The position numbers and the translations under genes were made by a program. A DNA stretch of 64,000 nucleotides from an uncultured Aquimarina sp. (GTDB taxonomy: Bacteria; Bacteroidota; Bacteroidia; Flavobacteriales; Flavobacteriaceae). The stretch's first letter is position 1; every line of letters starts with the position of its first letter. The stretch covers positions 217,622 to 281,621 of the forward strand of contig CANMDW010000003.1 of assembly GCA_947496705.1 (NCBI GenBank). The letters run 5' to 3'. Below, piece after piece: positions 8,612-25,756 of the stretch. A model generated the notes under the pieces. It was not told where the DNA came from and did not search any database. It saw only the letters and a list, made by a program, of their open reading frames with translations.

Positions 8612-9327
8612 CCTTTTAATCTATCTGTTATTTCCTGCTTTACTTTTATGACTTGTTGTTTAAAGTATTCTAATGTGTTTGTCGTTAAATAGGACGCTAT
8701 TAAATCTAACTTTTGATCCGGGGTTTCTGCTTTTCTTATGTTCAACTCTAATCTGCTAAATTCGGCCTCATTTTTTTCAATTAGCTTTGTTATTTTGATT
8801 ATTTCTTCCTTGAGTTCATCACTACTTTCGATCGCTATTTTATAGTACTTCTTAATCTGTTCTAATTTTACTTTAAGTACATTCGTTTTGTCTGAAGGTA
8901 TGTTTTCGAATACTTCGGTATACATTGACAAGAGTTTTATCTCAAACAGTTTATCCTGAATTTTATCAAAACCATTTTCCAGTACTTCCATGGCTTCTTC
9001 TTGATTATTATTTGCCACGAGTGCATTGACCAGTCCCTGTATGATATTAAACCTTCCTATTTCATTACATTCATAATTTTCTGCAAGACGGTAGGTTTTA
9101 ATAGCATCGGCATACATTTTGTTTTCAAGATATACCATTCCTTTCCAACTGTATAATTCTCGCTCAAAGTCCTTTTCTTGAGGGGTTTCTTTTGCTTTAA
9201 GAAGAAAATCATCCAAAATGCTTATTGCCTGCTCTATTTCTCCCATAGCGGAATGCATTACTACCTGTGGCAATTTCTTTTCGTAAGCTATGTATACATC
9301 AGTTTTATTCATGCTTGTATTTAACAT
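8608..9327 (-). CDS. Helical/TPR-like protein, putative immunity protein for the 9321-10592 cargo
   Basis: TPR-like helices (YSWKGMVYLENKMYADAIKTY); start overlaps the cargo stop by 7 nt. Confidence 0.6.
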   Translation of the reverse strand: MLNTSMNKTDVYIAYEKKLPQVVMHSAMGEIEQAISILDDFLLKAKETPQEKDFERELYSWKGMVYLENKMYADAIKTYRLAENYECNEIGRFNIIQGLVNALVANNNQEEAMEVLENGFDKIQDKLFEIKLLSMYTEVFENIPSDKTNVLKVKLEQIKKYYKIAIESSDELKEEIIKITKLIEKNEAEFSRLELNIRKAETPDQKLDLIASYLTTNTLEYFKQQVIKVKQEITDRLKG

Positions 9328-23900: not shown

Positions 23901-25756
23901 GGATCTGCATCCAGAATTATATAAATACTTATTCCTGCAGAAACAACCCACAACCCCCGGCCTGCTATTCGCATCCCACCAGGTAGTCTATTGACAAAAT
24001 TATTGGTTCTTGTAGCAGATGTAATTATAGATGCATTTGATTTTCCTGCAGCTATTAATGATGCATATGTTGGCCTTGCCTGTCTTCTAACGGCATCAAC
24101 TAATTCTGCTCCTTTTCTTAAAATAGTGCCCCCGGCAATTCTAACATCCAACGCCAATTGATGTCTCATCCCGGCCATTCTTTCTGCAATAACTGCTGCT
24201 TGATTTTCAGGAATAGCATCAGATAACATTCTTACAACCTGTCTTCTATCCATATTATTTCCCAGAGCCGCAATTATGTCATCAGCTTGTTGGGTCGGAA
24301 GTATTTCTCGAATCATTCTTGCTCTTTCTGCAACAATGCTCGTAATTCCATTATTATAGAGATTTCTAATAATTTCGACAGCTCCTGCTGAATTATTTAA
24401 TGCAGTTCCTAGGGCAAATACTCCAGCTTGTGCTCTTTGTTCTGGAGTATATTGGCGAAATATTTCGTCTTCTTCAACCAATTCAACTCCAAAATAAGGT
24501 CTCCAAACATCTAATAACCTAAGTTCATCAATAAAAATAATCGAATAATCAGCAGATGCATGTCTTATTTCTACAGAAGCATCTCCATATAATTCCTCTG
24601 CTATTGCTTCATCAGTATATGGCCCTAATGCTATTGCTCGTGCCGGAGGCCCTGGAATAGAGTCAAACCTAACATTATCTCCAAATACTTCTCTTTGAAT
24701 CTTGGTTTTTACGGTTGATCCTTGTTGAATCGTATGTGTTAACTCATGTGCTAATAAATGTTTTCCTGAGTTTGTATTGGTGTCATATTTCCCTTCATTA
24801 AAATAGATATCACTACCATGAGTAAAGGCTTGTGCGTTCAATTCTTTATTCATTTGTACTGCTTCACTATCTGTATGCACTCTTACATTGCTAAAATCGG
24901 CACCAAAAGTACCTCCCATAGAAGATTGCGTGTCAGATGGCAAAGGGCTGCCTCCTCCTTTGGAAGAGTGTAATCGGCTTTGTAAATCGGATGAGGCTTC
25001 ACTTTGCGCAGCTTCAGATTTTGCTTGTATATTTTCTTCTTCATCCAGAGGAGGAGTATCTCCAACGCTTAATTTTGTTTGAATTTCCTCTTCATTTTCA
25101 GAAAGTTCATCTTCTTTTTTTTGTAGTTTTTCTTCTTGCTCGCAAGTGGTACACTTGGGTTGAATTGAGGTAGAAGGGCTTTGAGAAACATCCCCGCCTG
25201 GCTTCTGCTCGCCTACAACTCTTGTTGTGTCGCCCTCAAGGGGGGACGTAAATGGTTTTGTTTGTACTTCAGGTTCTGGTTCGACATTGCTTTCAAAAAT
25301 GGGTTTGCGTTGTAGTTCTAACTCATTTTCTGAAACTTCATCATCTTTCTTTTGTAGTTTCTCTTCTTGCTCGCAAGTAGTACATTTGGGTTGAATTGAG
25401 GTAGAAGGGCTCTTTTGTGCAACATCCCCGCCTGGCTTCTGCTCGCTCACAACGCTCGTTGTACTGCTTTCAAAGGGGGAATAACCACTCTTTGAAGAGT
25501 CACTTAGCCTTTGTACTACTTTATCGGCCATAGCATCTGCTTCAACTTCGTATTTGTCATTGGGCTGGCCTATAGTGAGGCTGCCTGACGGCGAGGCAGG
25601 TTTAGGTTGTACAGTGGTTGGACTGAAAAAAGGTTCTGAAGCTTCATTGGATTTTGAGAAAAAGCTGCCTTCCCCTTCTTTAGTAAAGAAAGGTTCCCGT
25701 TTGGCCTGGATCTGGTTTTGAGCCGTGCCGCTTTTTTGTGCTTCAGCTGTTTTCAA
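20969..25756 (-). CDS. DUF4157 eCIS effector with glycine-zipper/TM regions, a pre-toxin Hint domain and a 145-aa C-terminal toxin
   Basis: Same leader class as 16507-19974; LLAHELTH; Hint from CFVKGT (Cys at 21817) through TPNH to ILVHN|D (21407). Confidence 0.88.
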   Translation of the reverse strand: MKTAEAQKSGTAQNQIQAKREPFFTKEGEGSFFSKSNEASEPFFSPTTVQPKPASPSGSLTIGQPNDKYEVEADAMADKVVQRLSDSSKSGYSPFESSTTSVVSEQKPGGDVAQKSPSTSIQPKCTTCEQEEKLQKKDDEVSENELELQRKPIFESNVEPEPEVQTKPFTSPLEGDTTRVVGEQKPGGDVSQSPSTSIQPKCTTCEQEEKLQKKEDELSENEEEIQTKLSVGDTPPLDEEENIQAKSEAAQSEASSDLQSRLHSSKGGGSPLPSDTQSSMGGTFGADFSNVRVHTDSEAVQMNKELNAQAFTHGSDIYFNEGKYDTNTNSGKHLLAHELTHTIQQGSTVKTKIQREVFGDNVRFDSIPGPPARAIALGPYTDEAIAEELYGDASVEIRHASADYSIIFIDELRLLDVWRPYFGVELVEEDEIFRQYTPEQRAQAGVFALGTALNNSAGAVEIIRNLYNNGITSIVAERARMIREILPTQQADDIIAALGNNMDRRQVVRMLSDAIPENQAAVIAERMAGMRHQLALDVRIAGGTILRKGAELVDAVRRQARPTYASLIAAGKSNASIITSATRTNNFVNRLPGGMRIAGRGLWVVSAGISIYIILDADPENRARVAREEVGAFIGGALGTAAVSSICIATGIATAGLGLVACGILGGLAGGAIGRDPYAFLQFLDMAPHTEDHRRGRLYRLQGVYDETDLFIISLIHRRVEESEHVMVIATGQVSGELVGGRGHYRNIEVTPASTAAEQLFGGTEPQWIPDYILHNPSTQDLLSEQPIQRKEDISPIIQKNGEETPEEKIRRLINDEDDSAIVELTDGELSVSTAAQRAGMIRILLDLLWVNYSEERAAVHLLRFQGKANEVLPLIDAVGYRQKFIDAVDNSELNAVLVRTMAEATVTNEGGDVDIQVILENPNSSYEDVMRLQSFASATNAQRLGLMRLLLEMNWSDKPEEAKMITILESSGEGLGELMNLITGLGLKQSLFDHIDDEEIAVSFTQLIGGLNDPVLNADLEVFNRGFWGNLGQGIWGGLVSAWENFSLGSIIMGFLHPIIHPIDSIVAIVLQIEEIIREFDFSLRTLDRIITVLRDAAGFIVMWLLLLSGIASGIAALVAAGVITLPASIPIAAIAAALWSYTGTFGIIFIVLAIIKLVIDLIQAGTSTTSRELEREQEEIGQDITLLGVILALVGIFKGMKWGVQRFRRGAVEPEAADPDALGETSREVKTESEKAGEDVTEAQERADNARNRANEESTREEPTREEPENIPEEIENVPDETNRPPREEQPREEPAREEQSREESVEQRKPCFVKGTKIITAAGVVPIEKIKVNDRALTRVMNSDSNLKPYRVEHIKSGQTPELYQIFIDKESVICTPNHFFATKNKGWVPAKYLNEQDELETADGSIKPTSILKVIPKQSTTVYNFTVEEVHTYFVAIGKHTILVHNDKPFYDPEILWFYDDKMKARDFTPNSRGEVNPDLDGKSVWETNSRVEAEEWWHIRRYVQGRSSSSRHSWIRTSQLAEFDLVAIETPGNGAHAEAGFKHYSIRPVENPDPTIDLTEAEINTLNERLAKLKAKYGANQRVKAKELGC

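Follow-up and report, generated by a model that had tools for sequence, protein, structure and literature searches.

Cargo region of the eCIS operon

The DNA analysed here, called the window below, is a stretch of 64,000 nucleotides from an uncultured Aquimarina sp. (assembly GCA_947496705.1, contig CANMDW010000003.1, positions 217,622 to 281,621), whose genome has 6.8 Mb and 36% GC. A complete gene set for an extracellular contractile injection system (eCIS) belonging to the AlgoCIS/tCIS type forms an operon on its minus strand, from the cap gene (49822) to the gene of an AAA+ ATPase (6914). Four genes of this operon, all on the same strand between the tape measure gene (CIS_TMP) and the ATPase gene, share an N-terminal leader and are the subject of this study. 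The features concerned are as follows.

26475..28109, minus strand: eCIS tape measure protein (PF19268 CIS_TMP, 357.6 bits), the upstream border of the cargo region
20969..25756, minus strand: P0004, 1595 aa, TTG start, class-2 leader; core motif L60-V81 at 25514-25579; DUF4157 aa 271-347 at 24716-24946
16507..19974, minus strand: P0003, 1155 aa, class-2 leader; core motif 19732-19797; DUF4157 aa 233-309 at 19048-19278
10654..11679, minus strand: P0002, 341 aa, class-1 leader aa 1-117 (11329-11679); core motif Q45-V69 at 11473-11547; no DUF4157
11329..11463, minus strand: gene-conversion tract, P0002 codons 73-117, with its partner at 10242-10376 in P0001
9321..10592, minus strand: P0001, 423 aa, class-1 leader (10242-10592); core motif 10386-10460; DUF4157 aa 195-270 at 9783-10010
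6914..8227, minus strand: AAA+ ATPase with a Pfam AAA domain, counterpart of Afp15/Pvc15/Alg15 and presumed cargo loader

In P0001, P0003 and P0004 the leader is accompanied by PF13699 (eCIS_core, formerly DUF4157), which scores 107-109 bits and has an intact HELTH. An earlier note on this DNA had described P0002 as a leader protein that lacks this domain, and the description holds: no PF13699 match and no HExxH were found in it, nor any Pfam or NCBIfam match at all. The motifs PFF(S/T)KE and LT(I/V)G(Q/E)P(N/G)DKYE(K/V)EAD.MAD.VV, which the same note had assigned to all four proteins, are indeed present in each. The C-terminal parts of the proteins are of different kinds. P0001 ends in a hydrophobic, Cys-rich domain; P0003 has a C-terminal Doc/Fic-type toxin domain (aa 1081-1152, 16519-16734), which matches TIGR01550 DOC_P1 with 41.8 bits at a cut-off of 38.65; and P0004 contains a PT-HINT domain (aa 1321-1451, 21404-21796) followed by a terminal toxin module. 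The TTG start of P0004 is supported by its relatives, which begin MKTAEA... at the same position.

The DNA of P0003 and P0004 is 93-97% identical over leader and DUF4157, and the likeness stops just after HELTHTIQQG. Over DUF4157 the identity is 95-97% (19051-19350 vs 24719-25018), so that the second leader and the near-identical DUF4157 DNA previously ascribed to the genes at 16507 and 20969 are both confirmed. In-frame repeats of 58 and 77 nt within P0003 (19436-19730) and P0004 (25107-25491) consist of 2-3 copies of the leader unit ...SPLEGDTTRVVGEQKPGG...QPKCTTCEQEEKLQKKE... and are internal duplications of it. An origin of these repeats from repetitive extragenic palindromic (REP) elements was also considered and rejected, since both units are confined to P0003 and P0004 and absent from the rest of the 6.8-Mb genome.

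With two unlinked members, this genome has six leader-bearing genes, where the usual number is one or two. The unlinked genes (C2:640162-641628, minus strand; C6:~204,300-205,900, plus strand) have the same leader style and DUF4157 (KLAIGQSGDQYEQEADQIAAQVV; RLNMGQPDDIYKQKADAIAEDSM). Unrelated genes flank the C2 gene, and neither of the two lies within any of the three contractile injection system (CIS) loci of the genome. Both are candidate cargo genes that would supply the machine from other parts of the genome.

A conserved core motif shared with AlgoCIS-like cargo

The leader contains a core of ~25 residues, Q.KL[TS][IV]G.P[NG]DKYE.EAD.[MV]AD.VV, which is near-invariant in a set of 260 distinct leaders; its residues D, E, E, A, D and the A that comes next reach about 100%. 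What else the 115-residue leader contains is confined to a single leader class. In AlphaFold2 models, the hydrophilic leaders are mostly disordered (predicted local distance difference test score, pLDDT, below 55) save one short helix over KYE.EAD..AD.VV. This helix spans residues 56-69 in P0002, in which the C-terminal domain is all-helical. In P0001 the DUF4157 domain is modelled with pLDDT 93-98 and the motif helix with 86-94. A search with the DUF4157 fold gave no match at all in the Protein Data Bank (PDB).

The tube sequence Alg1 of AlgoCIS was taken from the alignment of PDB entry 7adz and searched in 401 genomes of the family that contains the Cyclobacteriaceae metagenome-assembled genome (MAG) of locus L023. 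Alg1 matched the tube protein of four genomes at 95-96% identity, and each of these genomes has exactly two open reading frames (ORFs) with DUF4157, of ~497 and ~1197 aa, sizes that match the AlgoCIS cargo proteins Cgo1 (498 aa) and Cgo2 (1228 aa). The N-terminal domains of these Cgo1/Cgo2-like ORFs read ...FFGVQAKLEMGKPGDKYEQEADAVANQVVNN... and ...FFQAKLNMGQAGDKYELEADQMADHVVEG..., with the same core as in the window.

Cgo1 and Cgo2 fill the AlgoCIS tube lumen (Xu et al. 2022, PMC8894135). Their N-terminal domain is needed for loading, and DUF4157 and the C-terminal domain are dispensable (PROCIS preprint, 10.64898/2026.05.27.728243); the AAA+ protein Alg15 is required for cargo loading as well (AlgoCIS papers). 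Because the leader is homologous to this loading-essential domain of Cgo1/Cgo2-like proteins, the suggestion of the earlier note that the leader serves in loading is very plausible. As a claim about the ~115-aa leader alone as packaging signal it needs two amendments: the corresponding test has already been made and published in the sister system, and only a core of ~25-45 residues (the FF motifs and Q.KL..G.P.DKYE.EAD..AD.VV) is common to the four genes and AlgoCIS-like cargo.

Loading sequences of eCIS have been described as lacking sequence conservation (10.64898/2026.05.27.728243; Danov et al. 2024, PMC11297309), and for eCIS signal peptides hydrophilicity and disorder were stressed instead of conserved sequence (Danov et al. 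2024, PMC11297309). A sharply conserved core was not found in the AlgoCIS papers or in Danov et al. 2024 (PMC11297309).

Distribution of the leader and retention of DUF4157

A search with P0002 returned 119 proteins with leaders 65-80% identical to its own, and these proteins come from Aquimarina, Psychroserpens, Zobellia, Pricia, Galbibacter, Leptobacterium and one Cyclobacteriaceae MAG. In a scan of species-representative genomes, the class-1 leader was found in 47 genomes of Flavobacteriaceae, Cytophagales and Saprospiraceae, groups across which the leader has 65-80% identity. The modules behind leader and DUF4157 include Tlde1, YkuD, Tae4, colicin-M-like, peptidoglycan-binding and AHH/LHH/WHH nuclease domains, among others. 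The likeness of the leaders is not a matter of chance, since other genomes encode hundreds of proteins that carry this leader.

The leader is tied to eCIS loci. In 43 of the 47 related loci, the leader gene has an Afp15-like ATPase gene no more than 10 kb away. The earlier note had proposed a motif search across eCIS loci as a check, and the core indeed co-occurs with the tape measure: among 401 sampled Bacteroidota genomes the leader-core profile was found in 54 and CIS_TMP in 62, both together in 50, the leader only in 4 and the tape measure only in 12 (odds ratio 349, p=3e-47). In family f24 of this phylum sample (genomes of 2.2-3.1 Mb, e.g. G978:C1:971720-973573), many of the small genomes encode a single leader protein of ~1100-1280 aa no more than ~100 nt from the tape-measure gene; there the two genes are direct neighbours, with the cargo second.

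In the related loci the tape measure is usually followed by a small gene, a long class-2 cargo gene, one or more immunity-like genes, the haloperoxidase-like gene, ParA, a short class-1 gene and, last in this order, the ATPase. The genes that fill the intermediate positions in the window are listed below; the two immunity candidates are assigned by position alone.

20028..20951, minus strand: 307-aa ORF directly after P0004, candidate immunity protein
15971..16459, minus strand: 162-aa ORF directly after P0003, candidate immunity protein
12746-14161, minus strand: vanadium-haloperoxidase-like protein (Pfam)
11689-12453, minus strand: ParA-like ATPase (Pfam)

The 307-aa ORF has no family match and no counterpart in the 47 related loci, and the 162-aa ORF has no match in Pfam or NCBIfam. 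The ParA and haloperoxidase-like genes are kept in the same order directly upstream of the class-1 leader gene in 36 of the 47 loci, and their proteins are 84-90% identical in Aquimarina; the pair are not insertions and look like conserved accessory genes of this eCIS lineage. In the relatives, the gene after ParA usually encodes a plain leader plus DUF4157 of 239-330 aa and no warhead.

DUF4157 is retained with the leader almost everywhere. The ~250 other leader-bearing proteins have it, except seven short or cut-off ORFs. Among 84 leader-bearing ORFs in the related loci, four have no DUF4157, all of them short truncated ORFs of 130-205 aa; the leader-bearing matches of the P0002 search that have no PF13699 are, besides P0002 itself, three short or partial proteins of 193-223 aa (P0070, P0088, P0096); and for the class-2 leader alone, all 50 long proteins found have DUF4157. 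P0002 is the sole full-length leader protein without the domain among the ~250 examined. Retention this tight argues for an important role of DUF4157 after or beside loading.

The conserved module of P0003, P0004 and nearly all relatives extends through DUF4157, and therefore the usual swap point lies after HExxH..QQ and not where the leader ends; no exception other than P0002 was found. The earlier proposal that warheads are exchanged at the end of the leader fits P0002, and fails for P0003/P0004 and nearly all relatives, in which the variable part begins after HExxH..QQ.

Mosaic structure of the class-1 leaders

P0001 and P0002 stay collinear over 117 residues, and their likeness breaks off directly behind KLVQEKPE. 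The repeat at DNA level (10243-10542 vs 11330-11629) has 83% identity, and the full 351 nt have ~82%. The earlier note had recorded 347-bp near-duplicates whose similarity ends at KLVQEKPE; the collinearity and its end point stand, while near-duplicate is a generous word at ~82% DNA identity.

The two leaders are mosaic. DNA identity is 74% in codons 1-72 and 96% in codons 73-117, and the proportion of synonymous differences (pS) falls from 0.80 in the former to 0.18 in the latter (Fisher p=3.6e-5). In codons 1-72 the proportion of nonsynonymous differences (pN) is 0.13 at a pS of 0.80; synonymous sites are saturated and the protein is kept. Hence the leader of P0002 is under purifying selection despite having no DUF4157 behind it. 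In the 5' part, each class-1 leader resembles genes of other species more than it resembles the adjacent copy, and in the 3' part the leaders of P0001 and P0002 are mutually nearest by far (0.037 vs at least 0.141). Intragenomic gene conversion has homogenised the last 135 nt of the two leaders. The 3' edge of the conversion tract falls exactly at the leader/tip junction of P0002, and this coincidence supports the leader end as a recombination anchor in the P0002 case.

The spacer upstream of P0001 resembles a remnant of the ParA 3' end, which fits a former tandem duplication of the leader region. A simple recent tandem duplication of the class-1 leader was considered and is ruled out by the saturated synonymous sites of codons 1-72.

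P0002 joins an eCIS leader to an Rhs-type tip

P0002 is an intact ORF of 341 codons that starts 9 nt after the ParA stop, and its leader is joined directly to an Rhs-type C-terminal tip (aa ~128-341, 10657-11298). Residues 131-338 are 79% identical, from DFRPYDLP onward, to P0005, an Rhs protein of another Aquimarina genome. P0005 consists of a signal peptide, YD repeats and an Rhs core end (...ARFYDPALARWHVIDP...NNPITYNDPDGM), and then the P0002-like region. By its sequence, P0002 is a chimera of an eCIS leader and an Rhs-type tip, a warhead moved between delivery systems; it had been taken for a natural DUF4157 deletion in the earlier note, and this interpretation is replaced by the fusion.

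The C-terminal domain of this type is rare. Searches of 91 genomes from the genus and 401 from the family found it in P0002 and P0005 alone, and a phmmer search with it against 1.84 billion representative proteins gave P0005 and one weak match only. It belongs to no Pfam or NCBIfam family, and Foldseek against the PDB found no fold match (best E 0.85). Between P0002 and P0005 the domain has a ratio of nonsynonymous to synonymous substitution rates (dN/dS) of 0.11. P0005 lies in locus L008 (GCA_947496355.1 contig 1, 941-16477), which holds an RHS-repeat gene, a DUF6443 gene and six consecutive Rhs tips of ~460 aa, P0005 among them. Each of these tips has its own signal-peptide-like start, and no immunity ORFs lie between them.

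P0001 starts only 61 bp past the P0002 stop, and no immunity ORF follows P0002; no small ORF follows P0005 in L008 either, and that copy has no adjacent immunity gene. The tail of the P0002 tip has 27 Lys/Arg in 71 residues. Since there is no neighbouring immunity gene and the extremely basic tail resembles a nuclear localisation signal, the tip may act on a eukaryotic, possibly nuclear, target, which is a reasonable guess only. A second, unrelated tip of the L008 array shares this very basic tail (...R.RKR.RAIT...LP.PKDPKPKK).

Proposed loading mechanism and alternative explanations

We consider it probable that the four genes are the payload set of an AlgoCIS/tCIS-type eCIS and that the leader is a cargo tag read by the AAA+ ATPase. 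By analogy with the AlgoCIS N-terminal domain and Alg15, the leader, most likely through its core motif, would be recognised by the ATPase (6914-8227), which would unfold the tagged cargo and thread it into the tube lumen. DUF4157 with its HExxH, not needed for loading in AlgoCIS and nearly always kept, probably has a later role in processing, release or refolding. The toxin module after DUF4157 would be exchangeable: P0004 has HINT with a toxin there, P0003 has Doc, and P0001 has a Cys-rich domain of membrane type. P0002, if loaded, would load via its leader alone.

A narrower proposal, held tentatively, is that the 25-residue core Q.KL..G.P.DKYE.EAD..AD.VV could be a degron-like recognition element for the Alg15-family AAA+ loaders of Bacteroidota eCIS. 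If this is true, a single short motif would predict all cargo, including the distant genes on C2 and C6; the motif would suffice for the machine to take over toxin tips of Rhs and other delivery systems, P0002 being a natural example; and DUF4157 would be a post-loading accessory domain.

Several observations weigh against these proposals. The AlgoCIS deletion took the whole N-terminal domain, and it is by analogy that we infer the core motif to be its functional part. The genome of A. machipongonensis was not among the 401 sampled, and the four sister genomes serve as proxies for Cgo1/Cgo2. The motif helix is modelled with pLDDT 86-94 in P0001, with DUF4157, and with ~72 in P0002, without it, at alignment depths of 101 and 20 sequences; from the higher value, the main partner of the motif might be DUF4157. 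DUF4157 comes behind the leader in virtually all other proteins examined, which suggests that cargo with a leader only may be at a disadvantage. Finally, the toxicity of P0002 is putative, given a singleton with no detectable immunity gene and a C-terminal domain with no family or fold match.

There are rival explanations. If the core motif serves DUF4157, as a pro-segment, docking helix or cleavage site, loading would depend on features of the disordered leader that are less conserved, as has been suggested for PVC/Afp signals. Motif and DUF4157 are found together almost without exception, the model confidence of the motif helix is higher next to DUF4157, and published work found no conserved sequence in eCIS signal peptides (PMC11297309), all of which would follow. 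However, P0002 keeps the motif perfectly (Q45-V69) without DUF4157, loading in AlgoCIS survives removal of DUF4157 and not removal of the N-terminal domain (10.64898/2026.05.27.728243), and the pLDDT gap is confounded by alignment depth (101 vs 20 sequences). The roles in loading and in serving DUF4157 are moreover not mutually exclusive, and we regard this explanation as rather unlikely. It is also unlikely, in our estimate, that P0002 is a recombination by-product, in which an Rhs tip cassette came to stand behind a duplicated leader and gave an intact ORF that is not a working cargo, being poorly loaded, unreleased or inactive. Such an origin would suit a sole full-length leader protein without DUF4157 among ~250, with a C-terminal domain seen in just one other protein and no immunity ORF in the 61-bp gap before P0001; close relatives have a plain leader plus DUF4157 gene after ParA, which makes P0002 an insertion there. 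It sits poorly with an intact 341-codon ORF inside the operon, 9 nt past the ParA stop, with the purifying selection on its leader (pN 0.13, pS 0.80 vs P0001) and with the dN/dS of 0.11 of the tip, although much of that divergence may predate the fusion. In addition, AlgoCIS cargo is still loaded without DUF4157 (10.64898/2026.05.27.728243).

That the likeness of the leaders reflects a recent tandem duplication of neighbours and no shared function is extremely improbable. The genes are adjacent and the ParA 3'-end-like remnant and spacer lie upstream of P0001, as such a duplication would leave them, but codons 1-72 have saturated synonymous sites with the protein kept, and the leader is conserved in three Bacteroidota orders and in the unlinked orphans on C2 and C6.

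Comparison with known systems

The class of genes and the logic of loading are already known (Xu 2022, PMC8894135; Geller 2021, PMC8213781; PROCIS 2026, 10.64898/2026.05.27.728243), and the layout of DUF4157 followed by a toxin was described by Geller et al. 2021 (PMC8213781). New are the defined core motif that ties this locus to AlgoCIS-type cargo across Bacteroidota, the unique chimera of leader and Rhs tip together with the conversion tract in it, and a set of cargo genes that is unusually large and includes unlinked members.

The locus resembles AlgoCIS in operon type, in the position of the cargo genes between the tape-measure and AAA+ ATPase genes, in the plan of a disordered N-terminal domain, DUF4157 and variable C-terminal domain, and, via the Cgo-like proteins of the sister species, in the core GDKYE.EAD..A..VV. 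AlgoCIS has two cargo genes, whereas this locus has four linked and two unlinked ones, known here from the genes alone. It differs further from AlgoCIS in its two leader classes, in a cargo that is naturally without DUF4157 and has an Rhs-derived tip, and in the ParA and haloperoxidase-like genes inside the cargo region. With the eCIS-associated toxins (PMC8213781; PMC11297309) it shares a DUF4157 placed N-terminal to toxin domains of various kinds, a location at the 3' end of the eCIS operon and, for some genes, adjacent immunity genes, which here are candidates. No conserved signal-peptide sequence is reported in those studies, whereas here a sharply conserved motif upstream of DUF4157 defines the Bacteroidota lineage.

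The signals of PVC/Afp cargo (Pdp1, Pnf, Afp18) with Pvc15 are alike in combining an N-terminal, hydrophilic, disordered tag with an AAA+ ATPase for loading. PVC/Afp cargos are without DUF4157, and the PVC signals, of ~20-50 residues, have no conserved motif; no sequence similarity to this leader was seen or expected. As for Rhs and other polymorphic toxins, the P0002 tip is homologous to the region after the ...DPxG Rhs core end (L008), and the logic of tip swapping with gene conversion beside the junction is the same. In contrast to Rhs systems, the tip of P0002 stands on an eCIS leader and not in an Rhs shell, and neither copy has an adjacent immunity gene.

Particles of eCIS are under development as programmable tools for protein delivery. 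The locus and its relatives give the AlgoCIS lineage a precise short motif, which can be mutated directly in the genetically tractable AlgoCIS. P0002 offers a natural leader-only construct and shows movement of a toxin tip between Rhs systems and eCIS. That DUF4157 is kept almost everywhere calls for caution: dispensable for loading, the domain must matter otherwise.

Other genes of the operon and further CIS loci

Besides the cap and sheath genes, the operon holds three genes of the tube family, a baseplate-J-like gene, and genes for a spike, gp25 and a protein of 2387 aa.

49187-49822, minus strand: cap gene (Pvc16_N)
46396-47793, minus strand: sheath gene

The sheath is nearest to 7b5h, the thylakoid-anchored CIS (tCIS) of Anabaena (E 3.6e-150), and to AlgoCIS 7adz (E 2.6e-141), and the tube likewise to 7b5h (E 6.4e-57) and 7adz (E 1.5e-54).

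Each of the three CIS loci in the genome has its own ATPase, and the leader was found only with the locus of the window. The further loci, at C3:~90,300-110,000 and C26:~17,000-41,100, each have their own sheath, tube, spike, tape-measure and AAA ATPase genes, and their ATPases are 42-45% identical to that of the window. In the C3 locus the ATPase gene directly follows the tape measure, with no cargo gene in between. Behind the C26 locus lies an ORF of 721 aa that matches DUF4157 weakly and has no leader motif.

Minor features flank the cargo genes. The first 45 nt of the haloperoxidase-like gene (14124-14168) are repeated with 87% identity at 15143-15187, upstream of a 275-aa ORF (14264-15091), and a phased 21/126-bp repeat array on the plus strand (15273-15610) adjoins this repeat copy. 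After P0001 follow a TPR protein (8608-9327), which nothing in the 47 related loci matches, and a 106-aa ORF (8291-8611), matched weakly in just two of them. A TIR-domain protein (PF13676) is encoded on the same strand at 5522-6508, just downstream of the eCIS ATPase. Whereas the class-1 gene P0001 of the window has a hydrophobic, Cys-rich C-terminal domain of its own, in the Aquimarina relatives L019, L034, L036, L038 and L039 (~10,900-12,100) an extra leaderless HExxH protein of 354-391 aa is encoded between the class-1 gene and the ATPase.

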